Source: Fervidicoccaceae archaeon | Lineage (GTDB): Archaea > Thermoproteota > Thermoprotei_A > Sulfolobales > Fervidicoccaceae | NCBI GenBank assembly: GCA_038734945.1 | Contig: JAVYOA010000002.1 | Coordinates: 248,001-312,000 of the forward strand | Direction of reading: 5' to 3' | DNA: 64,000 nt | Part shown: positions 2,074 through 44,119 of the stretch, piece after piece | Layout: each line of letters begins with the position of its first letter | How positions within the stretch are numbered: the first letter of the stretch is position 1 | Position numbers and translations under genes: made by a program | Notes under the pieces: model-generated | Told to the model about the DNA's origin: nothing | What the model saw: only the letters and a program-made list of their open reading frames with translations | The model's database searches: none

Positions 2074-2229
2074 TTCTCTGTGCCACCTATCATAAATATT
2101 ATTCTACATGGATTATATTTAAAACTTATATCAAAATGCTATTAGAAAATGTCTAGTTTTTTACAGGTTTCTTGAAAAAATGCTAAAGTTTTTATATTGA
2201 TATTTTCGGAAAAATAAGAGGGAATTCGC

Positions 2230-2901
2230 TTGATAGATATTGCTAACAGCATGCTACTCTCCGATTTGCTCGTGGCTGTGCTGCTGCTAGTCTACAGCTT
2301 GTTCATCATATTCGTCTTCACAAAAAGAATCTATTCGTACATGATCAAGAGAGGCTTCGGGGAAAAGAGAGCAGCATACTTGAACAGAAAAATTGTTCAT
2401 ATTTCTATCGGGGGATTTGTCTCTGCAGCAATACCTTTCATTTTTCACTACCCCTTTGTCCCAGCGCTAGCTGCCTGGATCCTGGGGTTTTACTTGTTGT
2501 ATAGAAGAGAAAAGGGCTCTCTAATGTACTGGTTTCAGGTTAGGGAAAATGCATACGAAGTTAACTTCGCATTTGCATGGGGAGCAGCTGTCCTAGCTCT
2601 CTGGACTGCTCTGGGGAATCCCTTTGTTGCAATGCTTCCTCCAATGCTTGTTAGCTTTGGAGACGGAGTAACGGGGATAGTTAGGAATCTCATGTTCAAA
2701 AGGAGAACTAAGCACTGGGCTGGAAATCTCGCAATGGCCCTTCTAATGGTACCTATTGGCTTTCTATATGCAGGAGCGGTTGGGGTATTGGCTTCTCTAA
2801 TAGCATCGTACATAGAGAGGTTTGAATTTGGAATAATCGATGACAATGTTCTAATTGTTCTATCCTCGAGCCTGATTATTCTGGGGGCCAGATTAATTTA
2901 G
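2230..2901 (+). CDS. Dolichol/phytol kinase (CTP-dependent) family membrane protein
   Basis: RKIVH, FGDG, KHWAG and DDN motifs; multiple TM helices. Confidence 0.8.
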   Translation: MIDIANSMLLSDLLVAVLLLVYSLFIIFVFTKRIYSYMIKRGFGEKRAAYLNRKIVHISIGGFVSAAIPFIFHYPFVPALAAWILGFYLLYRREKGSLMYWFQVRENAYEVNFAFAWGAAVLALWTALGNPFVAMLPPMLVSFGDGVTGIVRNLMFKRRTKHWAGNLAMALLMVPIGFLYAGAVGVLASLIASYIERFEFGIIDDNVLIVLSSSLIILGARLI

Positions 2902-2909
2902 CATTGCTG

Positions 2910-4418
2910 CTACTCCAGCAGGGGTTCGAGTATTGGCTTAAGTCTCGTGTAGAGGGCAGAGGCCCTTTCCTTTCCAAGAAGTGCCCTTCCTATTTCTCTC
3001 AAATCGCTTAAGGTAATTATCTTCAGCTTTATGTACAGGACATAGGAAAGAGAGAGAAGCAGCATCCCATATATCCAGCTCAATTTAGAGAGATAGAGGA
3101 GGAGGCCAATTGAATATGGCACGCTGAGAACTATTATCAAGCTCCTTCTATCGAAAAACACATTTGCCTTCTTAGCCCTTTCGTAGAAGTACAGGGTTCC
3201 CATGATTGTTCCTATGACGGTTGTTATGGCAACTCCTGTGCCCCCAAGCATTGGTGCAAATATGAAATAGAGGAACACCCTTGGAAGATTCGTGAATGTC
3301 CCGCCCCAGAAAATTGAAGAATAATCTCCATATGCATAGAGAAGGCTCGTCACAAAGCTTGTATATGCAACAAGAGGGGAAGAGAGCAGAAGAATTGTTA
3401 GTGCCGGCCAACCTGCAGAGAGATCCTCTCCGAAAAGAGTCAGGAAAAGCTTTGGATATATCATAACAAATACTCCTATGGGCATCATGAGGGCAAGGCT
3501 GAGTCTGAAAACCCTTGCTCCCGTCCTCTTCCTTCCATCGGACATTCCACTAAGAACGGGAAGGAGGAGGCCGTTCATTGCATTGGATATCATGATAACA
3601 ACATTGGAGAGCTGTGAAGCGATATAGTAGGCACCAGTCTCCAGGCTTCCAATCGAGCCGTAGAGGACAAGGATCCCCATCCACTGGCCAACTGTTGATA
3701 TCAAACCTGGTGCCCAGCTGGGAATCCCTGCCCTGAGGAGCTCCTTAAGCCTATCAATGGAAAAAGTTGGATGGAGCTCGGCAATTCTCAGAGACTGAGC
3801 AGCATTGATCATTCCCTGGAGGAGGGAATTCATCATGTAGCCAACAGCTACCCCCTTCCAACCAAAGCCCAACTCGAAAAGAGATATCCCGAGGATGAAC
3901 TTTATAGCTACTGAGATTATGACGGAGAGAAATATTCTTTTTGTCTGGAGAGCGCTCTGAAGGAATGAGCTAAAGCTCCCAAGAAACGAAAAGAGGTTGA
4001 AAATAGCAGCGAAGAGCATCATGCTTCTTGAGTATCCATATGCACCAGGGAAAAAGTATCCGATGGCTAATATAGTTAAGCTCCCCATTGTATAGACTAA
4101 AAGAGAGAAAATTGAGGCAGTCCAGAGGTATTCGGTTGCGCACTTTCTGGGATTTTCATCGATTCCCAGGCAATATCCAGTGAACCTGCTGAGACCTGTA
4201 TTAATTCCTAGGTTCACCAAACCTCCAACAAGAGAGGAGAGGCCCACAACAACTGAGAGAATGCCAACGATCTCTCCTCCTCCTAGCCTTGATATTATCA
4301 TCCAGAAGAAGAAGCCCTGAAGATTGCTGACTATTGTTGAAAGATAGAGCCAGAGAGCTCCAGAGAAAACCCTTCCAATTTGGCTTTCTCTCTCCAAATC
4401 AATCACTTTCCCCGACAA
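2910..4418 (-). CDS. MOP-superfamily oligosaccharide flippase
   Basis: About 12-14 TM helices, ISRLGGGEIVG and GAYYIASQ patterns typical of Wzx/MATE-like flippases. Confidence 0.8.
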   Translation of the reverse strand: MSGKVIDLERESQIGRVFSGALWLYLSTIVSNLQGFFFWMIISRLGGGEIVGILSVVVGLSSLVGGLVNLGINTGLSRFTGYCLGIDENPRKCATEYLWTASIFSLLVYTMGSLTILAIGYFFPGAYGYSRSMMLFAAIFNLFSFLGSFSSFLQSALQTKRIFLSVIISVAIKFILGISLFELGFGWKGVAVGYMMNSLLQGMINAAQSLRIAELHPTFSIDRLKELLRAGIPSWAPGLISTVGQWMGILVLYGSIGSLETGAYYIASQLSNVVIMISNAMNGLLLPVLSGMSDGRKRTGARVFRLSLALMMPIGVFVMIYPKLFLTLFGEDLSAGWPALTILLLSSPLVAYTSFVTSLLYAYGDYSSIFWGGTFTNLPRVFLYFIFAPMLGGTGVAITTVIGTIMGTLYFYERAKKANVFFDRRSLIIVLSVPYSIGLLLYLSKLSWIYGMLLLSLSYVLYIKLKIITLSDLREIGRALLGKERASALYTRLKPILEPLLE

Positions 4419-7399: not shown

Positions 7400-7780
7400 A
7401 TGATGAGCCCCTTTCTCATAGCATACCGCTATGTGCTGCCAAGCATAAGGAGATATCTTGTAATTGAGCTTGCAAGGAGGGGAAGGAGCGAATATGATAT
7501 TGCAAAGATGCTAGGAATATCAGTGAGCGCTGCTTCGAGATATATAAATGGGAGGAGGGGTGCTCTGCTTAATTTAGAGAGCGATGATATGACAAGGAAG
7601 GAGATAGAGAGGCTAGCTTCCGAGCTGGAGAAAGGAAAAGATGTGGATGTTGAGGAAAAGCTTCACATTATAGCAGCATCACTGCTCTCGAGAAAAGTTC
7701 TCTGTCCATTCCACTATGAAATGGATCCCTCTCCTCCTCCAGCCAATTGCTCGGTCTGCTCCACATTGTTTGCAAAGTAA
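7400..7780 (+). CDS. HTH transcriptional regulator with Cys/His metal-binding C-terminus
   Basis: IAKMLGISVSAASRY helix-turn-helix; CPFH...CSVC. Confidence 0.85.
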   Translation: MMSPFLIAYRYVLPSIRRYLVIELARRGRSEYDIAKMLGISVSAASRYINGRRGALLNLESDDMTRKEIERLASELEKGKDVDVEEKLHIIAASLLSRKVLCPFHYEMDPSPPPANCSVCSTLFAK

Positions 7781-7782
7781 TG

Positions 7783-8349
7783 CTATTTTGCATAGATCTT
7801 CTTCAAGGCTTTTTTTGGATCGTGCTTCTTTCTGCTTGTTTGCTTGTGCTTGACTTTTCCCCTCTCTCTACTCTTCCTCAAAGTGTTGTGCTTCTCAATG
7901 CTATGAGCATCTTTTTTCTCCGGTGTTCCTAAATTCTCATCACTGCCTTCAGTCCTAGGAAGTTGCTCAATTTTTCCTCCTTGTTCGTTCAGCTGCGATG
8001 AATTGGAGATTGTGGAACTAGGATCACTTTTATTAAATTCCGGATTTTCCAAGCTAAAGGCTTCTCTCTTTATAGAAGCTGATTCAATACTAGCTGCTTC
8101 ACCTGAATTTTCCTCAGCAGTCCTGTCTTGTTCATCTGATAAGGAAGAAATCTGGGATCCTTCATTGCTATATGTCGTTCCGCTAACATTTATCCAGTTG
8201 ATTGCTGCGAGAGCTATCAGGCCGAGTATTAAAGCCAATCCGAGATAGCCCGGACTGATGCTCAGCTCCACCAGAAGAAGTATGGATAATGCTGCCAATG
8301 CTATGAAAGAACTTGCCAATATCTTATCTCTTCTCCATACTTTTGCCAT
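7783..8349 (-). CDS. Hypothetical membrane protein (2 TM, acidic linker, basic tail)
   Basis: Two N-terminal hydrophobic helices followed by low-complexity charged tail. Confidence 0.55.
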   Translation of the reverse strand: MAKVWRRDKILASSFIALAALSILLLVELSISPGYLGLALILGLIALAAINWINVSGTTYSNEGSQISSLSDEQDRTAEENSGEAASIESASIKREAFSLENPEFNKSDPSSTISNSSQLNEQGGKIEQLPRTEGSDENLGTPEKKDAHSIEKHNTLRKSRERGKVKHKQTSRKKHDPKKALKKIYAK

Positions 8350-8443
8350 TCCTGCTCAGCTCTTCAATTTTAAATATGCATAGTTTTAACATTCCTGGAT
8401 GCAATTAGAGATTGTTTAGAGTATAAAAGAGGGAGGACTAATC

Positions 8444-9430
8444 ATGGATGAAAGATCTTTCAGAGAGCATATTGATAGATGGGAGTCCCTTGCTCTGAAC
8501 GGAATAAATGAGGGAGGAAAAGTCGAATGCGAAATGGATGGAAGGATAAAGAGGATCATATTTGCCGGCATGGGAGGATCTGGGATAGTTGGGGACTTTT
8601 TCCTAGATCTGGCCCATCACTATAGTTTTCCATTCGATATATATTCTGTAAAGGGCGATTACATCCCTTTTCCAGTCAGCTCTGAGGACCTGGTTGTTCT
8701 CCTCAGCTACTCTGGCGACACAATGGAGACTCTCTCTATATTCAACCAAGTCAGAGAGACAGCTAGGGTTTTAGCAGTTACTAGTGGAGGAATGCTCCTC
8801 TCTCTTTCCATGGCCTCCCCACCTGCTTGCGCAATAAAGCTATCAAAGGGGCTTTTTCCAAGGCTGGATCTTCCTGAAATGCTATATGCAGTTTCCTCAT
8901 TCCTCTCAAAGAACTTTGGAATAAGATTTCTCTCGAGAGAGAGGCTGCTTAGCTCTCTCTCAGCATTTAGATTGGACTTGAGGGAAGAAGTATTGAATGC
9001 AGCGAGATCGATTTTCGGATATTTTCCAATCTTCTTTGCTTCAAGACCATATGCATCTGTTGCTCTTAGACTCAAGAACGACCTTTCTGAGAACTCAAAG
9101 ATTTATTCCTCTATTGAAATTATCCCAGAAGCAATGCACAATACAATAGAATCGCTATGGAAGCTCAGAAACAATCACAAGATATTTTTCGTAGCAGGAA
9201 GACATGCCTTTGGCGACATCTTTGTAAGGGCTTTTTCCGAAGTCCTCGGAGATAGGATAGACAAGGTGCTTCTTAGGGGAGATGACTTAATCTCAGAGCT
9301 AATTTATGGCTATAGGCTATCAGCATATATTAGCCTTGAGCTCTCTTCACTCTCTAAAGTTAATCCTGTTAAAACTGAAGCGATAGACAGATACAAGATG
9401 TCGCTCAAGAAAATCCTTGAAGAAAATTGA
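8444..9430 (+). CDS. Bifunctional phosphoglucose/phosphomannose isomerase (SIS domains)
   Basis: GMGGSG, SYSGDTMET, TSGG, ENSK, PEAMHN motifs. Confidence 0.88.
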   Translation: MDERSFREHIDRWESLALNGINEGGKVECEMDGRIKRIIFAGMGGSGIVGDFFLDLAHHYSFPFDIYSVKGDYIPFPVSSEDLVVLLSYSGDTMETLSIFNQVRETARVLAVTSGGMLLSLSMASPPACAIKLSKGLFPRLDLPEMLYAVSSFLSKNFGIRFLSRERLLSSLSAFRLDLREEVLNAARSIFGYFPIFFASRPYASVALRLKNDLSENSKIYSSIEIIPEAMHNTIESLWKLRNNHKIFFVAGRHAFGDIFVRAFSEVLGDRIDKVLLRGDDLISELIYGYRLSAYISLELSSLSKVNPVKTEAIDRYKMSLKKILEEN

Positions 9431-35044: not shown

Positions 35045-36334
35045 TTATTTTTGTGCGGGCTGTGTTGGCTGGGCAGGAGGAGTAGGAATAGCTGCTGCTT
35101 TTTTCTTCGGCTTCTTTAGAATCCATGGATTAACGAGTACTGCTGCTATCAAAGCTCCAATGCCAAGGCCAATTATAGAGTATGTGTATGTTCCAAAGGT
35201 AACAAGCAGCCATGCTGTTATGTATCCTGAAATAAGCCCTCCCCAGCTCTTTGCTGTGTAAGTTATACCATAGTTGGTGGTAGCATATCTTGGACCGTAG
35301 AAGTCCCCTATAAATGCTGGATTGAAAGCGAAGACTGCCCCTGCAAATAGCATTGCGAGAACTACGAAGGCAGCAAACCCGGTTGGATTGGTGGCCGTTA
35401 GACCAAGAGCTATCATGAAAACTCCAGCTAGAGCATAGAATAGAGTTGCAGTGAGTTGCCTCCCAATATAATCGGAGATCCATCCTCCAAGTATTCTGCT
35501 AAATCCATTTGCCAGAGGATATGCTACCAAGACAAAGTTCAATATTGTTGCGGGAATCTTGTTCTCCTTAGCCATAGGTTTCACTTGCGCACCAAACAGT
35601 AGAGCGATTGCTGCTACTATTGTGAAAGAAATGTAGATCAGCCACCACTGTGGGGTCTTTAGCATTTCATACCATTTCCAGTTCACTGTATCCTCCTTCT
35701 TCTCCTCTTTCTTTTCTTCCTTCTTTTCCTCCGTCTTTTGCTGCTTCTGCTGTTGCTGCTGTACGAACTCAGGGTACTTGTAGAAGAATGTAAAAGGCAA
35801 TATGAATATCAACATCAGAATTCCAACATATAGAAAGGCGGTTTTTGTTCCATAGTTAGTAATCCATGCCTGGAAGGGTAAGTTGAATATTGCTGTTCCA
35901 GCACCGAAGCCGAAGGTTACAATTCCAGTTGCCAGTCCTCTTCTGTCAGGGAACCACTTCACTGCTGTTGCTGCTGACATCCCATAGAGCATGCCTACCC
36001 CAATTGAGCCAATTGTGTAGTAAATATACAGCTGAATGGGAGAGGTTATTGTAGAGCATAGGAGAAAGCCCAGGGAAACAAGCAGTCCAGCCAATATTGC
36101 TATATTTCTTGGGCCAATCTTATCAGCAAAATAACCAGAGAAGGGCTGGACAAATGTAGCAGCATAAGTATAAAGTGTGAAGGCAACTTGAATTGTGGTC
36201 ATCGACCACTTCAGATCCGTGTTCAGACCGGAGGCAAAGAGCGACCAGGAATATTGATATATGCTAATGAACATCATCACTATTACTGCTCCAACCAACA
36301 CAACCCATCTTTGCTTATACTTGGTTACATCCAA
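35045..36334 (-). CDS. OFA-family MFS transporter (OxlT-like oxalate transporter)
   Basis: QYSW, KWFPDRRGLATG, NGFSR, TAK motifs; 12 TM. Confidence 0.88.
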   Translation of the reverse strand: MDVTKYKQRWVVLVGAVIVMMFISIYQYSWSLFASGLNTDLKWSMTTIQVAFTLYTYAATFVQPFSGYFADKIGPRNIAILAGLLVSLGFLLCSTITSPIQLYIYYTIGSIGVGMLYGMSAATAVKWFPDRRGLATGIVTFGFGAGTAIFNLPFQAWITNYGTKTAFLYVGILMLIFILPFTFFYKYPEFVQQQQQKQQKTEEKKEEKKEEKKEDTVNWKWYEMLKTPQWWLIYISFTIVAAIALLFGAQVKPMAKENKIPATILNFVLVAYPLANGFSRILGGWISDYIGRQLTATLFYALAGVFMIALGLTATNPTGFAAFVVLAMLFAGAVFAFNPAFIGDFYGPRYATTNYGITYTAKSWGGLISGYITAWLLVTFGTYTYSIIGLGIGALIAAVLVNPWILKKPKKKAAAIPTPPAQPTQPAQK

Positions 36335-36412
36335 AGAAAATCACCCATGAAATTTTTGTTAGTTATATTCTCTATTAAAAAATTTCTATTATAATGGAGT
36401 GGGAAAAAAATA

Positions 36413-37372
36413 TTAATATGGTACAACTAATCGTCCCACCTTAGCGGATTCTTCCCAGAATACCCATTCCTCCTCTATCATCTTGTCCAGCTTATCCATA
36501 TCCTCTTCCTTCAGATGGCTGAATCTTCCCTGCAGAGTGAGATATTCCCTCACGTGCTTCCTCGGCTTTGGTCTATAGTTCAGCTTGAAGTGACCCTCGA
36601 TCTGCTCCCACAGAGCCCACATTCCCGTCTCAATTGCCAGCCTCGATAGATTCACGGTATCAGCAGGGGATGAGAACCATCCCTTGGGGCATGGCAACAA
36701 CACATGTATCAACGAGGGACCTCCTGAGTTCAATGCCCTTTGAACTTTGTTCATTAGATCAAGGGGGGGCCACAGCGTTGCCGTAGCTACATACTTCACC
36801 TTTGGATGTGCTGCTGCTACGAGAGCCATGTTCTTCTTAAGCCTTGTATTGCCGATAGGCTTGACTTTTCCTGCTGGTGTGAATGTTGTTGTTGCTCCCC
36901 ATGGAGTTGTGCTCGATGCCTGTACTCCTGTGTTCATATATGCCTCATTGTCATATACTACATATAGCAGTCTCTGATAGTCGTATGACAGACCCATTGA
37001 TAGACCAGAGAAGCCTATGTCTGCCATAGCACCGTCTCCACCCATTACAACAACGTTTATGTCCTCAAGCTTTCTCTTTCCCTTCAGCATCAGAGTTCTG
37101 AGAGCTGATGCTACTCCTATTGCTGCTGCTCCTCCTCCTCCAAGCTGCGTGTGATGCCATGGAACCGAGTATGGTGAAGTAAGGAATTGGTGGGCATTGG
37201 CTACATACATGCATCCTGTTGGTCCAATAAATATGGTATTAGGTCCTGCTGCTTTCGATATCAATCTGTATCCTAGAGCTGGCCCACACCCTGCACAGGT
37301 TCTTCTCCCTGCTGTGTAATAGTCCACTCCAGGAATTTCCTTCACACTTCTGAATGCGACCTGGCTGCTCAT
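36413..37372 (-). CDS. Oxalate-oxidoreductase-type 2-oxoacid:ferredoxin oxidoreductase, beta (TPP/[4Fe-4S]) subunit
   Basis: TCAGCGPAL, GPTGCMYVAN, GDG...DNEAYMNTG, PCPKGW. Confidence 0.9.
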   Translation of the reverse strand: MSSQVAFRSVKEIPGVDYYTAGRRTCAGCGPALGYRLISKAAGPNTIFIGPTGCMYVANAHQFLTSPYSVPWHHTQLGGGGAAAIGVASALRTLMLKGKRKLEDINVVVMGGDGAMADIGFSGLSMGLSYDYQRLLYVVYDNEAYMNTGVQASSTTPWGATTTFTPAGKVKPIGNTRLKKNMALVAAAHPKVKYVATATLWPPLDLMNKVQRALNSGGPSLIHVLLPCPKGWFSSPADTVNLSRLAIETGMWALWEQIEGHFKLNYRPKPRKHVREYLTLQGRFSHLKEEDMDKLDKMIEEEWVFWEESAKVGRLVVPY

Positions 37373-38604
37373 ATATCTTCACCCCTTAGAGTGAGCCAAT
37401 ATGCTTTCTTCTGAGGTTTCTTGTGAGCAGATTCCATCACCTTCTCAGCTACTTGAGTGAAGTGCTCCACAGTTGGTTCCCTCCCTCCGAGGAATAGGAA
37501 GTCAAGGAGCTCAGGTTTTGATCCTGCTTCGTACAATGTAGTTGCAACTTCATGATAGAGGGATCCTGTACCGAATGGTGAGCCAAACGAGTAGCCGAAC
37601 TCGATCACTCCTGCAGCTTTCACACCATCGAGGACCTTCAGCAGCTCCTCAGCTGGGAATGGTCTTACATATCTTAGCCTGACAGTTCCAATCTTCATTC
37701 CCTTCTTTCTCAGCCTATCAGCAACTAGCTCTATGTCCTTCATATACGCTCCCATGCTTACCAAAGCGAATTCAGCATCCTCCATTCCAGTCGTCTCAAT
37801 GAATGGTGGATATTCTCTACCAGTGTATTTAGCGAAGTCCTTCCAGGCCTCCACGATTACCTGCTTTGCTCTCTTAGTAGCAACATCCACTGCTTTTCTC
37901 TGCTCTGGTCCAATTAGAGATGGTGCTATATGCTGAGCCTTGGTTATTGGTCCCTCTGCTGGATCTAGCTTGTACGGAGGTCTGTAAGGTGGCAAGAAGT
38001 TCGTGGCCTGCTCCTTTGTAACTGGAACTACTGGTGTAGCAACATGAGTTATAGCTGCTCCATCTAGGGCAATGAAGTGAGGCAGCAGCACTCTTCTGTC
38101 CTCAGCAACCCTGTATGCGACCAAGGTCATATCCGAGGCTTCCTGCACAGTCTTTGCCCAGGATATTAGCCATCCGAAGTCTCTGAACATCAGAGCATCA
38201 GACCACTCCATTCCGAAGTTACCTGGATCGTCAAGTGCTCTTGTTCCTATAGCAGCCACCACAGGAAGTTGACTGAGTGCCGTGACAATTATAGCTTCAG
38301 CAGCAAATGCCAGTCCTACTCCGCTACTTCCAGCGAAGACCCTGGCACCAACTGCTGATGCATGCTTCACTATCTCGAACTGGCTGTGCTCTGAATCAGC
38401 AACTATGATATCAGCAGTGAACTCTCCGTTTGCAATCATAGATGCTAGTGCATTCATTATTCCCGTATAAGGCCTGATCGGATAGGCTGCTATTACATCG
38501 ACATCAGCAATTTTCACTGCCTCTGCTATTGCTCTGGCTCCATTCCATACCTTTGCTTTCGGTTTTTCAATTGTAATTGGGGGCATAGGTTTAATTGCGG
38601 ACAT
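37369..38604 (-). CDS. Oxalate-oxidoreductase-type 2-oxoacid:ferredoxin oxidoreductase, alpha subunit
   Basis: YPIRPYTGIM (Arg in place of the YPITP Thr), SEH, GSSGVG, RALDDPGNF. Confidence 0.88.
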   Translation of the reverse strand: MSAIKPMPPITIEKPKAKVWNGARAIAEAVKIADVDVIAAYPIRPYTGIMNALASMIANGEFTADIIVADSEHSQFEIVKHASAVGARVFAGSSGVGLAFAAEAIIVTALSQLPVVAAIGTRALDDPGNFGMEWSDALMFRDFGWLISWAKTVQEASDMTLVAYRVAEDRRVLLPHFIALDGAAITHVATPVVPVTKEQATNFLPPYRPPYKLDPAEGPITKAQHIAPSLIGPEQRKAVDVATKRAKQVIVEAWKDFAKYTGREYPPFIETTGMEDAEFALVSMGAYMKDIELVADRLRKKGMKIGTVRLRYVRPFPAEELLKVLDGVKAAGVIEFGYSFGSPFGTGSLYHEVATTLYEAGSKPELLDFLFLGGREPTVEHFTQVAEKVMESAHKKPQKKAYWLTLRGEDI

Positions 38605-38614
38605 TCATATCACC

Positions 38615-39754
38615 TCAGAATCCATACTCCCTCTGTTCGAATCTTCTGAGGACCTCCTCATCCTTGAGGCCCTCGAGGTATTCTAGTTCGGACACCATCG
38701 TTATTGCTTTGACCGGGCACACTGTTGCGCAGGTTCCACATCCCTTGCAGTACTCATAGTCGACCTTGATGGGGGCAAAGTCTATTGCACCATCTGGGCA
38801 GTAGTAGTGGCATAGCTTGCAGTCAGTGCACTTGTTCATATCTATGATTGGCCTCTGCCATCTCCATGGTGTTGTGAAGCCTAAGTTCCTCTTTCCAGGT
38901 TGGGGACCAAACTCTATCAGTCCAGGAGCGAGAACTTCCCATCTCGGCATAGCAGCAAGCCTTGAAGGATATGTTTGAGCCTCAGCGGCAGCCTTCTGAT
39001 AAGCATAGTATACTTCTGGATTCCAGAACTCACCAGTGAACTCTGGGAGCTCGATTTCCCTCTTTATCTTCCTGGCCATCTCTGTTTCTTCAGCAAGAAC
39101 ATGAACCTCCTTGACAGAAGCAGCTTCATATCCCTTCCTTACCGATTCCTTCTTTTTCTCCTTTCCTAGAACATCAAGTGCGCTGAGCAAGGAATCGAGG
39201 TCCACCCTATCCCAGGCTCTTGCCAAGGCTCCAAGCATCGGATAGGCAATTGCTGAATCTATCTTGGCTGCGCTTATTGTTACAACTTTTCCGAACCAGT
39301 CCTGCGCCAAGTTGTACTTCTTCACCAATCTCACTACATCATCTGGAGATATTGATGTGTTCACAAGGAGAACTGCATCCTTCTTGGCTCCATCAAAAAG
39401 AAGGGCTCTCTGCGAAGTCTTTTGCAATAGCAGGCTGGAGCTGAATACTGCTATCACGTTAAAGAGCTCTCCAACTGGCTCAACCTCCTCGTGCAGAAGA
39501 ACAGGGACCTTTGGCTTTCCGAAAACTGTGTAGAATATCATTGGAATGTAGTTTCGCTCGGGGCTGTCGTCATACCTCATGTAGTAATACGTTTCTATTC
39601 CTTTCACCGATCCTGCTTGCGCTAGAGTCTGCGAGAAGGATGTCATGTCTGCTGTATGGTCCACGCCCAGTCCATGTGCTATTACCCAATCAAGCTCTTC
39701 GTATTCTGGATATCTTTCCACTTTTGGTGTAACCCTCACTAATTTTACTGGCAA
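38615..39754 (-). CDS. 2-oxoacid:ferredoxin oxidoreductase fused gamma/delta subunit (2x[4Fe-4S])
   Basis: YDDSPER gamma motif; WRWQRP, CTDCKLCHYYCP and CKGCGTCATVCP. Confidence 0.9.
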   Translation of the reverse strand: MPVKLVRVTPKVERYPEYEELDWVIAHGLGVDHTADMTSFSQTLAQAGSVKGIETYYYMRYDDSPERNYIPMIFYTVFGKPKVPVLLHEEVEPVGELFNVIAVFSSSLLLQKTSQRALLFDGAKKDAVLLVNTSISPDDVVRLVKKYNLAQDWFGKVVTISAAKIDSAIAYPMLGALARAWDRVDLDSLLSALDVLGKEKKKESVRKGYEAASVKEVHVLAEETEMARKIKREIELPEFTGEFWNPEVYYAYQKAAAEAQTYPSRLAAMPRWEVLAPGLIEFGPQPGKRNLGFTTPWRWQRPIIDMNKCTDCKLCHYYCPDGAIDFAPIKVDYEYCKGCGTCATVCPVKAITMVSELEYLEGLKDEEVLRRFEQREYGF

Positions 39755-39787
39755 ATTTTCACCTCGCTTTATTAGTGTAAATAATTT

Positions 39788-39814
39788 ATTATAAATGAAA
39801 ATCGCATGATTTTC
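39788..39814 (-). promoter_or_regulatory. Operon promoter (TATA TTTATAAT) with adjacent palindrome GAAAATC-N4-GATTTTC
   Basis: Perfect 7-bp inverted repeat at 39797-39814 immediately upstream of the TATA box. Confidence 0.65.
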
Positions 39815-39990
39815 CGCTGTTGATTCAATAATAATAAAAATTTATAATATTTTATAATTTTTAAAAAAATAAAACTAAAAAGAAAAATTAATTTTTTAGA
39901 AATAAAAATAAAACTTCTCATTCCTCAAACTTTTTATTCCCCTATAAAATAAAGAAACATTGTCACGGCTTCTTGGAAGGAGTGATAGCT

Positions 39991-40248
39991 TTGAGTGAGG
40001 AGGAGGAAGTGGAGGAGGAAAGCACACAGGAAATTGTGGAGGAGACGGAGCGCGCAGCAGAAAGCGAGGCAGAAGAAGAACTGGAAGTTACTCCTGAAGA
40101 TATGAAGGTAATGGTAGATATAATAGAGAAGATAGAAGAAGCGTATGAGGGAAAGCTATCTTCAAAGGAGCTAGAGAACATATACAAGACAAAGGCCGAA
40201 AAAAAGGTGAAGGAAAAGGAGAGGAAAGAAAGAAAGAAGAAAAAATGA
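39991..40248 (+). CDS. rpo13: Probable RNA polymerase subunit Rpo13
   Basis: Acidic N-terminus, helical core ending EGKLSSKEL, Lys-rich tail; GGAGTGA RBS before TTG. Confidence 0.7.
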   Translation: MSEEEEVEEESTQEIVEETERAAESEAEEELEVTPEDMKVMVDIIEKIEEAYEGKLSSKELENIYKTKAEKKVKEKERKERKKKK

Positions 40249-40256
40249 CTTTTTAT

Positions 40257-41768
40257 TTATATTAGATACTCAAAGACTCTTCTTCCTCTATAGCTGTATA
40301 TGATTGTCTTGACTGCCATAACTTCCTCAATGCTGTAGGCTATACTCTCTCTTCCAATGCCACTCTCCTTTCTCCCGCCATACGGATAATACCCTATTCC
40401 ATGCCTTGGTATATCATTGACATAAATTGCTCCATATTCAAGATATCTTATCAGCTTTCTAATTCTGTTTATATCCTTTCCAAAAATTGATGCATCTAAT
40501 CCAAAGCGTCTGTTGTTAGCTAGCCTTATTGCCTCATCATCGTTTTCATATTCAAATATGATTGCTACTGGCGCAAAAATTTCCTCCTTGTAGAGGAGAA
40601 TATCATTTAGCTTGCTTTTATCGCTTATTTCTATTAATGTGGGTTCCACATAGTTTCCGCCCAGCCTTTTTCCCCCATAGAGGATCCTCCCTCCCTTTTG
40701 AACTGCATCCTCAATCCCTCTCATCATATCCTCAACTGCTTCAGCAGAAATTAGAGGCCCCATTGTTACGCTGGGATCCCTGGGATCTCCTATCTTCACC
40801 TTTGAAAGGTTCTCCACTATCTTATTTTTCAGCTGTTCAAATATGGAGGTGTGAGAGATTATCATTTTAATAGCATCGCATCTCTGTCCAGCATAGCTGT
40901 ATATGCCGGCTGCTATTAGCCTCGCAGCATCATCTATCTCTGCATCTGGAAGAACTATAGCTGGATCCCCTCCGCCTAGCTCCATCAAGTACTGCTTAAT
41001 TCCTCCAACCTTCAGAACTCTTTTCCCAGTCTCACTGCTTCCAGTTAAGCTTATTACTCCAATTCTACTATCAGCTACAATTCCATCCATCTCACTTCCT
41101 GGAACGGTTATTACCATTAAAGATTCTCTTGGAAAGCCTGAAGCCTCAGCCACCCTCGCAAAGAGAATGGAGGGAACTGGAACCTGTGTTGGAGGCTTTA
41201 TTATTACAGCATTTCCTGCTATTGCGCTGTACGTGAATTTAGCTACTGTATCGAACAAAGGATAGTTGAACGGAGAAATTGCAAGGACAATCCCATAGGG
41301 CTCTTTCCTTACAATGCTCTCAGTTTCCAATGTGGACTGGTCCCAATCGCCTGGTATATAGTCACCATACATCTTTCTGAGATCCAGCTCTGACCTCCTC
41401 AGCCTCTCAATGCTCGCATTTACCTCCCCGCTAGCCTGCTCCCTAGTTTTTCCTGCTCCTATTATGAGAGAATCTATGAATATGTTTTTGTGCTCCTCGA
41501 TGAGCTCAGCCATTTTCTCGAGATATTTCATCCTCTTATATCCTGGAGTATTTCTTATCTTCCACCTACCGCTCTCATGCAGTTCCTTTATGTAGGGCTC
41601 GACTTCCTCATATGTGAGCCTTGGAACAGTTCCTACTACACTTCCATCTATTGGAGAATATATTTTCTGCTCATTCTTTCCAAAGATCCATCTTCCAGCA
41701 AGATATGCTCTGTATCTCCTCATCCCTTCTCTTTCTTCGAATGCTGGCGAGAAGAATTCTTCGCTCAT
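40257..41768 (-). CDS. gapN: Non-phosphorylating NAD(P)-dependent glyceraldehyde-3-phosphate dehydrogenase
   Basis: GDYIPGDW, PFNYPL, TGS, MELGGGDP, GQRCDA, EEIFAP. Confidence 0.9.
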   Translation of the reverse strand: MSEEFFSPAFEEREGMRRYRAYLAGRWIFGKNEQKIYSPIDGSVVGTVPRLTYEEVEPYIKELHESGRWKIRNTPGYKRMKYLEKMAELIEEHKNIFIDSLIIGAGKTREQASGEVNASIERLRRSELDLRKMYGDYIPGDWDQSTLETESIVRKEPYGIVLAISPFNYPLFDTVAKFTYSAIAGNAVIIKPPTQVPVPSILFARVAEASGFPRESLMVITVPGSEMDGIVADSRIGVISLTGSSETGKRVLKVGGIKQYLMELGGGDPAIVLPDAEIDDAARLIAAGIYSYAGQRCDAIKMIISHTSIFEQLKNKIVENLSKVKIGDPRDPSVTMGPLISAEAVEDMMRGIEDAVQKGGRILYGGKRLGGNYVEPTLIEISDKSKLNDILLYKEEIFAPVAIIFEYENDDEAIRLANNRRFGLDASIFGKDINRIRKLIRYLEYGAIYVNDIPRHGIGYYPYGGRKESGIGRESIAYSIEEVMAVKTIIYSYRGRRVFEYLI

Positions 41769-41851: not shown

Positions 41852-41949
41852 CGCCGGGGGCGGGATTTGAACCCGCGCTCCCCCAATGGGGAACTGGCTC
41901 ACCAGCTCTGTCTCCAGGCCAGCCCCTTAGTCCGCTCGGGCACCCCGGC
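41852..41949 (-). tRNA. tRNA-Ser(GGA) with 12-nt intron at 37/38 (41900-41911)
   Basis: Acceptor GCCGGGG/CCCCGGC, G73, long variable arm, GGTTCAAATCC T-arm, BHB CUGG/CUGG helix; CCA not encoded. Confidence 0.92.
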
Positions 41950-42703: not shown

Positions 42704-44032
42704 TCAGATATGGGCTCCTGTTCCCCACTTCTCCAGTGCTCTTCTAAGCTCCTTCTTCTCTCTCGCATATTCCTGAAGCGGGATTCCGCTCATTGCAGCT
42801 TCCATTGCTTGTCTCACTGCTCTTGCTCCTGCTGCTGGACCATCTGGATGACCTATTGTACCTCCGCCTATTTGTATTACAATATCGTTCCCAAGCCTTC
42901 TCATAACTTCAGGAAGTGTCCCGGGATGGAGACCTCCCGAGGATACTGGGAAAGCCGGTTTTATGCTGTAGAAGTTCTGCTCTAAGTGCTCATACTCTCC
43001 ATTTTCCGGGACGTATTTCTCCTCTCTTAGGAGTTTTGCCATTCTGATAACATCGATTGCCTTAGCATCCAGCTTCCCAACACCGGGAGTCCCTATGTGA
43101 AGCTGGTCCATCCCTATGAGCCTATAAAGCTTAGCAAGGGTAAACATCGAGATTCCATGATCTGGATTTCTCGTGAAAGCGGCATGCATAGCTCTATGTG
43201 CATGAATTGCAAGGTTAAGTTCCTCAGCCAAATCTCTCACATATGTAAGAGAGGACCATCCAGAAACTACAACATCTACCATTATATGGGGATTTCCCAA
43301 GTCAGCTACAAGCTTCATTCTTTTTTCCATCTCCCTTATATCTGATGTGATATTGGCAAGCCAAGTCTTGCGCTCTCCTGTTTCACTCTCAGCTCTTTCT
43401 ATGGCTCTCATTATAGCCTCAGCTCTTCTCTGAAAAGAGCAGAAGCTTGGACTAGCAAGGTTCTCATCATCCTTCACAAAATCCATGCCTCCGACTAATA
43501 GCTCATATGCTAGTTTGCCTACTTCCTCTGGCGAATATCCAACCTTTGGTTTGGGGACTGTTCCCACGATCGGCCTATCCTTTATACCGAGAGCTTCTCT
43601 AACTCCCAGAATTCCTTTTCCTGGTCCCTTGAACCAAGAAATAAATTGCTGGGGGAGGTATAGATCCTCAAGTCTCAGTGAACTTATCCTCTTCATGCCA
43701 AATATGTTCCCAGCAACAGATGCCAGAAATGCAGGTAGGTTGCCTTGTTCAAATAGTTCAAGAGGATATGCCACTTTAACATAATAGTATCCGCCATCAA
43801 TTTTCTTGAAAGAAAAGGCCCTTCCTTTGAGTCTGTCAACTCTTGATTCATCGTACCAGACATACAGGGTGGTCCATGTTCCCACACTGCTCTCTGCTGC
43901 TAATCCCCCAGCAGCCTCTTCAGGAGTGAATCCTTCTGCTGGCTTTACCTTGAACACAGCTATTACGTCGTTCTTTGGGTCTGGAACATAGCTGGTGTCC
44001 ACAAAAGGAGCATACGGCTCCTCGTCACTCAA
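42704..44032 (-). CDS. rbcL: Form III ribulose-1,5-bisphosphate carboxylase
   Basis: AAESSVGTWT, PKPKVG, KDDENL, HAHRAMH, HIGT..VGKL, SSGGLH, GGG all present; TTG start inferred. Confidence 0.95.
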   Translation of the reverse strand: MSDEEPYAPFVDTSYVPDPKNDVIAVFKVKPAEGFTPEEAAGGLAAESSVGTWTTLYVWYDESRVDRLKGRAFSFKKIDGGYYYVKVAYPLELFEQGNLPAFLASVAGNIFGMKRISSLRLEDLYLPQQFISWFKGPGKGILGVREALGIKDRPIVGTVPKPKVGYSPEEVGKLAYELLVGGMDFVKDDENLASPSFCSFQRRAEAIMRAIERAESETGERKTWLANITSDIREMEKRMKLVADLGNPHIMVDVVVSGWSSLTYVRDLAEELNLAIHAHRAMHAAFTRNPDHGISMFTLAKLYRLIGMDQLHIGTPGVGKLDAKAIDVIRMAKLLREEKYVPENGEYEHLEQNFYSIKPAFPVSSGGLHPGTLPEVMRRLGNDIVIQIGGGTIGHPDGPAAGARAVRQAMEAAMSGIPLQEYAREKKELRRALEKWGTGAHI

Positions 44033-44119
44033 TTCTATCACCTTTATTTAAATTAATAATGAAAATTTTTAAACTTCTTTACAATTTAAAAAGGTTTTGT
44101 ATGGAAAAAGGCGAGCTCC

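Follow-up and report, generated by a model that had tools for sequence, protein, structure and literature searches.

A candidate operon for oxalate import and oxidation in a Fervidicoccaceae archaeon, encoding an archaeal relative of Moorella oxalate oxidoreductase

The window analysed here is a stretch of 64,000 nucleotides from a Fervidicoccaceae archaeon (GenBank assembly GCA_038734945.1, contig JAVYOA010000002.1, positions 248,001 to 312,000). On its minus strand, the open reading frame (ORF) list holds four co-oriented genes in the order gamma/delta, alpha, beta and major facilitator superfamily (MFS) transporter. The first three encode the subunits of a 2-oxoacid:ferredoxin oxidoreductase (OFOR) related to the oxalate oxidoreductase (OOR) of Moorella thermoacetica, and the fourth encodes a carrier of the oxalate:formate antiporter (OFA) family. 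The best reading of this operon, to which we give a little more than even probability, is that it would serve the import of oxalate and its coenzyme A (CoA)-free oxidation, as an accessory catabolic module for a C2 dicarboxylate, most likely oxalate. In the proposed mechanism, the OFA-family carrier would take up oxalate, which the three-subunit enzyme of the YPIRP superclade, dependent on thiamine pyrophosphate (TPP) and [4Fe–4S] clusters, would bind between Arg44 and Arg122 of its alpha subunit. The reaction would run in the direction of oxidation, converting oxalate to 2 CO2 without CoA, and the two low-potential electrons released would pass via three clusters to ferredoxin. Energy conservation would be coupled to the pathway where this ferredoxin is re-oxidized, possibly by the membrane-bound Complex1_49kDa-type complexes of the genome.

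All three enzyme subunits find their best match in the PDB in Moorella OOR. The alpha subunit matches the OOR alpha chain (5c4i_A, 310.6 bits) ahead of a pyruvate:ferredoxin oxidoreductase (PFOR) alpha chain (9bt4_B, 212.7 bits), the beta subunit matches the OOR beta chain (5c4i_C, 326.4 bits) ahead of a Methanosarcina-type PFOR beta chain (213.1 bits), and gamma/delta matches the OOR delta chain (5c4i_B, 72.9 bits) ahead of a Methanosarcina-type PFOR delta chain (51.2 bits). This last match is carried by the C-terminal ferredoxin part (59 bits), the N-terminal part giving 16.7 bits only. Pfam detects Fer4 domains alone in gamma/delta; its N-terminal 280 residues (the domain III part) are not recognized, and no POR domain is found there. 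An AlphaFold model of gamma/delta built on 14 homologues (pLDDT 80.2, pTM 0.84) was compared with known structures using Foldseek, and the best matches are fused OOR delta chains (E = 7.5e-19, target-normalised TM 0.76–0.82), ahead of PorC gamma chains. Eight cysteines (309, 312, 315, 319, 336, 339, 342 and 346) are invariant in the 14 homologues and belong to a 2×[4Fe–4S] ferredoxin domain. The beta sequence reads TCAGCGPAL...GPNTIFIGPTGCMYVAN, and the [4Fe–4S] cysteines of this subunit are located in TCAGC, TGC and PCP. Since domains III and V are fused, and since the best Foldseek match of the fused chain is the fused OOR delta chain, the three-subunit layout is that of OOR. The NCBIfam OOR models are likewise the top match for all three subunits, with 358 bits for the OOR alpha model on the window alpha compared with 303 bits for the archaeal PorA model. 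An earlier note on this DNA, made from the letters alone, had described four co-oriented genes with YPIRPYTGIM in alpha and TCAGCGPAL in beta, which are present exactly as claimed, and had proposed an OOR-like layout of three subunits, which the PDB matches and Foldseek now support.

The active site of the alpha subunit carries the arginines of OOR. The sequence around the motif is AAYPIRPYTGIM, with YPIRP at residues 41–45, and Arg44 within it aligns with OOR Arg31; the Arg that the earlier note had read in place of the Thr of YPITP, as in Moorella OOR, therefore stands at the equivalent position. OOR Arg109 corresponds to Arg122 and OOR Phe117 to Phe130, both of which are invariant in a multiple alignment (A1). 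According to the part of PMC5020499 that treats OOR (section 7), Arg31a of the unique YPIRP motif binds oxalate, Arg109a is the sole residue conserved with other OFORs, Arg31a and Asp116a are important in the bait-and-switch mechanism of OOR, and the Thr of YPITP is essential in conventional OFORs. A data-driven comparison with 91 YPITP rows singled out 13 alpha positions that every one of the four YPIRP subgroups conserves and that are rare on the YPITP side. The window alpha has all 13, the counterparts of Arg31, Asp112, Gly115, Phe117 and Glu120 being among them. Its beta subunit has eight of the nine positions specific to the superclade, among them Tyr56, a Tyr which throughout the YPIRP superclade replaces the Glu found after TGC in conventional enzymes. 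The equivalent of OOR beta Asn143 is also kept. The window enzyme shows none of three marks of conventional enzymes, namely the Thr of YPITP, the beta TGC-x-Glu and a placement among por/vor sequences.

Its phylogenetic position was examined in an alpha tree of 154 sequences over 407 columns (LG+G4, quick search, with support from the Shimodaira–Hasegawa-like approximate likelihood-ratio test, SH-aLRT), for which 18 of the 51 Asp-type loci were kept, and L014, L015, L023 and representatives outside 360–440 amino acids (aa) were dropped. The YPIRP rows split from the 91 YPITP rows with a support of 99. Within this superclade, a 22-row clade (support 100) unites Moorellaceae, other Bacillota, Acidobacteriota and Chloroflexota and has the loop RTLDPPGDF, with the switch Asp of OOR (Asp116). 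The Moorella naiadis locus (L094) ties this Asp-type clade to the characterised enzyme, its alpha subunit scoring 843 bits against 5c4i_A and 818 on the NCBIfam OOR alpha model. The window alpha lies outside it, in a 19-row archaeal clade (support 100) of Asn type, with the loop RALDDPGNF. This archaeal clade and a mixed Ala-type group with the loop RALDDPGAF (Pseudomonadota, Acidobacteriota, Methanomethylicota and others) together form the sister group (support 98) of the 22-row clade. The earlier note had set the phylogeny of OOR, PFOR and VOR as a check on its proposal: the window alpha sits in the YPIRP superclade, apart from the YPITP rows, and there it is sister to the Moorella-containing clade, not inside it. 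Among the Methanomethylicota, L040, L046 and L048 form a second Asn-type subclade, in which gamma and delta are encoded separately in L046 and L048; two Pup-ligase-family genes and a small ORF precede the enzyme in L040 and L046, and in L046 the small ORF has a molybdopterin-binding-like domain.

The 120 clusters (at 90% identity) nearest to the window alpha are 63–93% identical to it, and those with a name come from metagenome-assembled genomes (MAGs) of Thermoprotei, Bathyarchaeia, Thermoplasmata or Sulfolobales, where they carry the label pyruvate ferredoxin oxidoreductase. YPIRP is found in all 120 of them. Among representatives at 50% identity, the scores drop from 508, 339, 314 and 310 bits to 257 bits or lower, and the full-length representatives at or below 257 bits carry YPITP. 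YPIRP is therefore no chance match, because all of the nearest clusters have it and the lower-scoring representatives have YPITP. The window alpha is 92% identical to an alpha subunit recorded for a Fervidicoccaceae archaeon and 85% identical to a homologue named Fervidicoccus fontis at NCBI. High-scoring alpha orthologues occur in six of the 41 sampled genomes of the order, the window genome counted, and the archaeal Asn-type clade mixes several phyla. Both this patchy occurrence and this mixing fit an accessory, transferred module.

The carrier encoded downstream of the enzyme best matches OxlT of Oxalobacter formigenes in the PDB (8hpj, 166.8 bits), with the lactate transporter SfMCT in second place (140.8 bits), and the genome has no other gene of the OFA family. 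Passages of PMC10070484 on OxlT describe a first shell around oxalate formed by Gln34, Tyr35, Tyr124, Arg272 and Lys355 and a second shell formed by Tyr150, Trp324, Tyr328 and Trp352, and state that the basic residues Arg272 (TM8, transmembrane helix 8) and Lys355 (TM11) are conserved across the OFA family. The window carrier keeps all five first-shell residues (Gln27, Tyr28, Tyr117, Arg280 and Lys362), plus the equivalent of Asn268, whereas SfMCT has Leu at the position of Gln34 and Cys at that of Lys355. Among 44 carriers linked to YPIRP enzymes, Tyr35, Tyr124, Asn268, Arg272 and Lys355 are present in 44 and Gln34 in 42. As Arg272 and Lys355 are conserved family-wide, they speak more for membership of the family than for a specificity for oxalate. 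The central loop of the window carrier (MFS residues ~200–215) holds the run QQQQQKQQKTEEKKEEKKEEKKE, which is lacking in OxlT, and sequencing reads seem to break at this repeat (35691–35715).

The pairing of enzyme and carrier recurs well beyond the window. Counting an OFA MFS hit of at least 150 bits inside the fetched locus, we found a carrier in 34 of the 51 Asp-type loci and three of the 12 Ala-type loci; the search pattern for loci specified Asn or Asp at the switch, so that these loci do not measure how common the Asp, Asn and Ala loops are relative to each other. Both congeners of the window have the carrier, as does the window itself, and over all other YPIRP loci it adjoins the enzyme in 40 of 86, compared with none of 24 control loci centred on ordinary por/vor alpha genes. 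These counts include many short loci (at least 3 kb on both sides was available for 41 Asp-type, five Ala-type and ten Asn-type loci) and Acidobacteriota loci that are close kin and not independent. The adjacency spans Thermoproteota, Thermoplasmatota, Bathyarchaeia, Bacillota, Acidobacteriota and Pseudomonadota, and in the Moorella naiadis locus gamma/delta, alpha, beta and the OFA MFS gene stand in an order identical to that of the window. Lineage-specific neighbours (a citrate-type carrier, an aldehyde:ferredoxin oxidoreductase, acyl-CoA dehydrogenases and Pup-ligase-like genes) were also considered as partners of the enzyme and rejected, each occurring in one lineage only. In one Bathyarchaeia MAG (L032), a formamidase/acetamidase-family gene (7629–8528, plus strand) directly follows beta, and an OFA-type MFS gene (2216–3613, minus strand) lies upstream of the enzyme; an amide such as oxamate or formamide could feed the pathway there.

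The window genome (1.34 Mb, 99.95% complete) contains six POR_N genes, five besides the OOR-like alpha gene; two of these five are PorA-like, of the four-subunit kind, and group with the YPITP rows in the tree. As the genome has these other OFORs, including the two PorA-like ones, the OOR-like enzyme is an addition and not the PFOR of the cell. No gene with CoA_transf_3 (frc) is found in the genome, and the best match to oxc reaches 19.8 bits, so that the genome lacks the oxalyl-CoA route. Its two loci with Complex1_49kDa could be part of ferredoxin-oxidizing membrane complexes. Regarding expression, the contigs of one metatranscriptome library cover 36144–39134 at ~95–97% identity and little else in the 13.1 kb examined; the covered part falls on the three enzyme genes and the start of the MFS gene. 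This coverage is compatible with transcription in a related strain, and it is weak evidence because the contigs show neither strand nor RNA origin. In the hot-spring metatranscriptome X15, no raw reads fell on the same 13.1 kb in about 3/100 of the run, a sample too small to test expression.

Several observations weigh against the oxalate reading. OOR Asp116 is replaced by Asn129 in the window alpha, and Asn stands at this position in 117 of the 120 nearest clusters, the loop RALDDPGNFGMEW being identical in 112 of them. In the beta subunit, Met146, beside the Asn143 equivalent, is the residue of PFOR and VOR where the superclade has Ala; within the 14 Asn-type rows compared, this Met is confined to the window and a single close relative. 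The beta loop 173–181 has Ile, Asn, Arg, Lys and Asn in the archaeal clade where the Moorella clade has Glu, Lys, Leu, Pro and Asp, so that Glu/Asp are lost and Arg/Lys gained. None of the three subunits reaches its OOR cut-off in NCBIfam (NF045791 for alpha, 357.8 against 500; NF045792 for beta, 375.6 against 590; NF045790 for gamma/delta, 102.4 against 230), just as the ordinary PorA-like genes of the genome miss those of their own models, and identity to the Moorella naiadis proteins is 42% for alpha, 52% for beta and 25% for gamma/delta. The carrier scores almost equally on the NCBIfam lactate and oxalate models and lies below both cut-offs (SfMCT, 293.3 against 320; OFA family TIGR00890, 286.6 against 374.85; OxlT TIGR04259, 281 against 335), the lactate model being nominally the top match. 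In pairwise alignment to OxlT, its second shell has Phe, Ala, Phe and Tyr for Tyr150, Trp324, Tyr328 and Trp352, none of the four being identical and three being aromatic. The OOR reaction yields no formate, so that exchange with formate is unlikely, and an OxlT-like antiporter would need a counter-substrate other than formate. The linkage is also thin within the Asn-type subclade: the carrier is found in three of 23 Asn-type loci beyond the window and its congeners, a minority (Desulfurococcales, Thermoplasmata and Bathyarchaeia MAGs), and a search with the carrier as query did not find it in two same-family genomes (98–99% complete) that have the enzyme, with alpha subunits 85% and 61% identical to that of the window. 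Finally, a Pfam scan of 48 neighbouring ORFs in 14 other archaeal loci revealed no conserved partner, with MFS genes in some. The earlier note had called the enzyme OOR-type and had taken the transporter as pointing independently to oxalate. The former holds in that no PFOR or VOR is as near to the enzyme as Moorella OOR is, and has to be narrowed, as the enzyme lies outside the characterised clade, with Asp116 replaced and scores below the cut-offs. As to the latter, the carrier is of the OFA family and keeps the OxlT first shell, and its linkage within the archaeal subclade is limited to a minority of loci.

The loop itself suggests how an enzyme of this type might dispense with Asp116. Both non-Asp loop types, Ala and Asn, carry an extra Asp at the position of Moorella Pro113, and such an Asp (Asp126) stands there in the window alpha; it may take over the switch role. 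The beta subunits of the Asn-type clade were also searched for an additional conserved Asp, and none was found. If the archaeal enzyme decarboxylates oxalate twice, its electrostatic switch probably works differently. A broader and more tentative proposal, which we hold at somewhat below even probability, is that the whole Asn-type clade would be a true CoA-independent OOR with a relocated switch (Asp at Pro113, Asn at 116), transferred among archaea (Thermoproteota, Bathyarchaeia, Thermoplasmatota, Methanomethylicia and others), for which oxalate would be an overlooked electron donor.

The enzyme might instead apply the same chemistry to a different substrate, small and polar or acidic, which the carrier would import; a 2-oxo or dicarbonyl compound such as glyoxylate, oxamate, mesoxalate or hydroxypyruvate would be of this kind, and we consider this unlikely without dismissing it. 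The Asp116-to-Asn change, the recharged beta loop and the scores below the OOR equivalog cut-offs all go in its direction, as does the amidase-family gene directly after beta in the Bathyarchaeia locus that also has an upstream OFA carrier; moreover, an enzyme without a carrier in two relatives fits an internal metabolite. Moorella OOR acts weakly on other 2-oxoacids. Yet the window alpha keeps all 13 superclade positions, with both arginines and the counterpart of Phe117 that forms the pocket, which argues for a substrate of equal size and charge; in the carrier, both carboxylates of oxalate would still find their basic partner residues, and Asp-, Ala- and Asn-type enzymes all adjoin one kind of carrier.

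A conventional OFOR that needs CoA and acts on pyruvate or another 2-oxoacid, with an odd motif and beside a monocarboxylate (lactate- or pyruvate-type) MFS carrier, appears quite improbable to us. The database label of the homologues, the 303 bits of the archaeal PorA model beside the 358 of OOR, the PFOR-type beta Met146 and the lactate model as nominal top match of the carrier are what such an enzyme and carrier would show. They stand against an Arg in place of the YPITP Thr, which is essential in conventional OFORs according to the same part of PMC5020499, a superclade-wide Tyr where the beta subunit canonically has Glu after TGC, the tree split from 91 YPITP rows (support 99), a domain III part in which Pfam sees no POR domain, and a carrier with Lys and Gln where SfMCT has Cys and Leu; the genome, in addition, already has two PorA-like enzymes and three more with POR_N. 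Enzyme and carrier might also be neighbours by chance, the enzyme detoxifying or recycling internal oxalate or glyoxylate and the carrier serving another purpose. The gap between beta and the carrier gene, with its T-run and TATA-like element, the two enzyme-bearing relatives in which the carrier was not found, and its low count among the other Asn-type loci (three of 23 loci, just ten of the 23 having at least 3 kb on both sides) would agree with this. We give it very little weight, the single OFA gene of the genome lying 78 nucleotides (nt) from the operon on the same strand and the adjacency recurring across six archaeal and bacterial groups compared with none of the 24 controls. Import and CoA-free oxidation of oxalate stays our preferred reading of the operon.

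The features of the locus are collected in the table. Gamma/delta and alpha are separated by 10 nt, alpha and beta overlap by 4 nt, and 78 nt separate beta from the MFS gene. Given the T-run and TATA-like element in these 78 nt, the MFS gene may be co-transcribed with the enzyme genes or may have a promoter of its own. The most upstream start of gamma/delta is a TTG at 39754, preceded by GAGGTGA and the TATA-like TTTATAATAAA. The span of 35045 to 39814 that the earlier note had given is correct in its gene content; its upstream end runs into the leader, including about 60 nt of non-coding sequence, because no gamma/delta start lies further upstream than 39754.

Features of the operon in the window, with positions counted from the first letter of the 64,000-nucleotide stretch
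Feature	Position	Strand	Length and remarks
Gamma/delta subunit, fused (domains III + V)	38615..39754	-	379 aa
Alpha subunit (domains I–II) of YPIRP-type 2-oxoacid:ferredoxin oxidoreductase	37369..38604	-	411 aa
Beta subunit (domain VI)	36413..37372	-	319 aa; TPP-binding GDG...NTG, proximal [4Fe–4S] cysteines
OFA-family (oxalate:formate antiporter family) MFS transporter	35045..36334	-	429 aa; Gln/Lys/Glu-rich central loop
YPIRP motif, alpha residues 41–45	38470..38484	-	from translation and alignment to OOR
Switch/plug-loop equivalent, alpha residues 122–134, RALDDPGNFGMEW	38203..38241	-	from alignment
Beta–MFS intergenic region	36335..36412	-	T-run past the beta stop, TATA-like ATTATAATAG, GGGTGA, then TTG start
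Operon leader	39755..39830	-	TATA-like TTTATAATAAA and GAGGTGA ribosome-binding site; by consensus only

In the 500-nt gap upstream of the operon, a 91-aa ORF (39973–40248, plus strand) has a Glu-rich first half and a Lys-rich tail. It has no Pfam match and, among related loci, matches only the window's own copy; possibly it is not a gene. Further upstream, on the minus strand, lie the genes for a non-phosphorylating NADP-dependent glyceraldehyde-3-phosphate dehydrogenase (GAPN; 40257–41768; NF040869, 810.5 bits for a cut-off of 780) and a type III RuBisCO (42704–44041; TIGR03326, 633 bits for a cut-off of 497), with a sugar-1-phosphate nucleotidyltransferase gene between them. Between the GAPN and nucleotidyltransferase genes sits an intron-containing tRNA gene (41852–41949, minus strand; 98 nt for a 71-position model), which was found with Rfam (RF00005, 45.4 bits) and missed by ARAGORN. 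The depth of metagenome contigs reaches thousands at this gene compared with 6–9 in its flanks, a pile-up that fits a conserved sequence common to many organisms.

In the literature searched, only one characterised OOR is described, from a bacterial acetogen, and no paper describing an archaeal OOR was found, the primary OOR papers and a structural phylogeny review lying beyond the reach of the search. In the portion of the 2024 oxalotrophy review available (PMC13409138), archaea are mentioned once, solely for oxalate formation. This agrees with the earlier note, which knew of no characterised archaeal example; archaeal homologues are abundant in the databases, as PFOR. New here are the Asn-type clade of archaea and the fact that its enzyme can be paired with the carrier. 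If the oxalate reading is right, anaerobic archaea would gain a CoA-free route yielding two very low-potential electrons per oxalate, and several hundred database genes labelled PFOR would need renaming. Should the relocated switch apply to the whole clade, oxalate would be an overlooked low-potential donor for anaerobic archaea of hot springs and sediments. If the clade does oxidize oxalate, the proposed bait-and-switch mechanism could moreover be probed through the Asp116-to-Asn and Asp116-to-Ala variants that occur naturally. The question can be taken to the bench, because the cultured Fervidicoccus fontis of the same family has a homologue 85% identical to the window alpha.

The operon can finally be compared with four known systems or groups. 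With the OOR of Moorella thermoacetica (EC 1.2.7.10; PDB entries 5c4i, 5exd and 5exe), the window enzyme shares the three subunits, with domain III and ferredoxin fused, the equivalents of YPIRP Arg31, Arg109, Phe117 and beta Asn143, the cysteines for three [4Fe–4S] clusters, 13 of 13 alpha and eight of nine beta superclade positions, and the gene order of the Moorella naiadis locus. It differs in its archaeal subclade, in an identity of 42%/52%/25%, in having Asn for Asp116 and Asp at Pro113, in a recharged beta loop and Met for beta Ala142, in a very divergent domain III (16.7 bits) and in missing the NCBIfam cut-offs. With OxlT of Oxalobacter formigenes (PDB entries 8hpj and 8hpk), the carrier shares Gln34, Tyr35, Tyr124, Asn268, Arg272 and Lys355, whereas Tyr150 is Phe, Trp324 Ala, Tyr328 Phe, Trp352 Tyr and Gln63 Thr; moreover, it lies below the TIGR04259 and TIGR00890 cut-offs and has an extra Gln/Lys/Glu-rich central loop. 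The archaeal PorABDG and VorABDG enzymes (PDB entry 9bt4) belong to the same superfamily, with the same cofactors and domain set, and are the next-best match (213 bits for alpha and beta), but they have the Thr of YPITP, the beta TGC-x-Glu and separate gamma and delta subunits. The Ala-type YPIRP group is alike in having both arginines, no switch Asp and the extra Asp in RALDDPGAF, and is distinguished by Ala where the window clade has Asn, the window clade being archaeal and separately supported (100).

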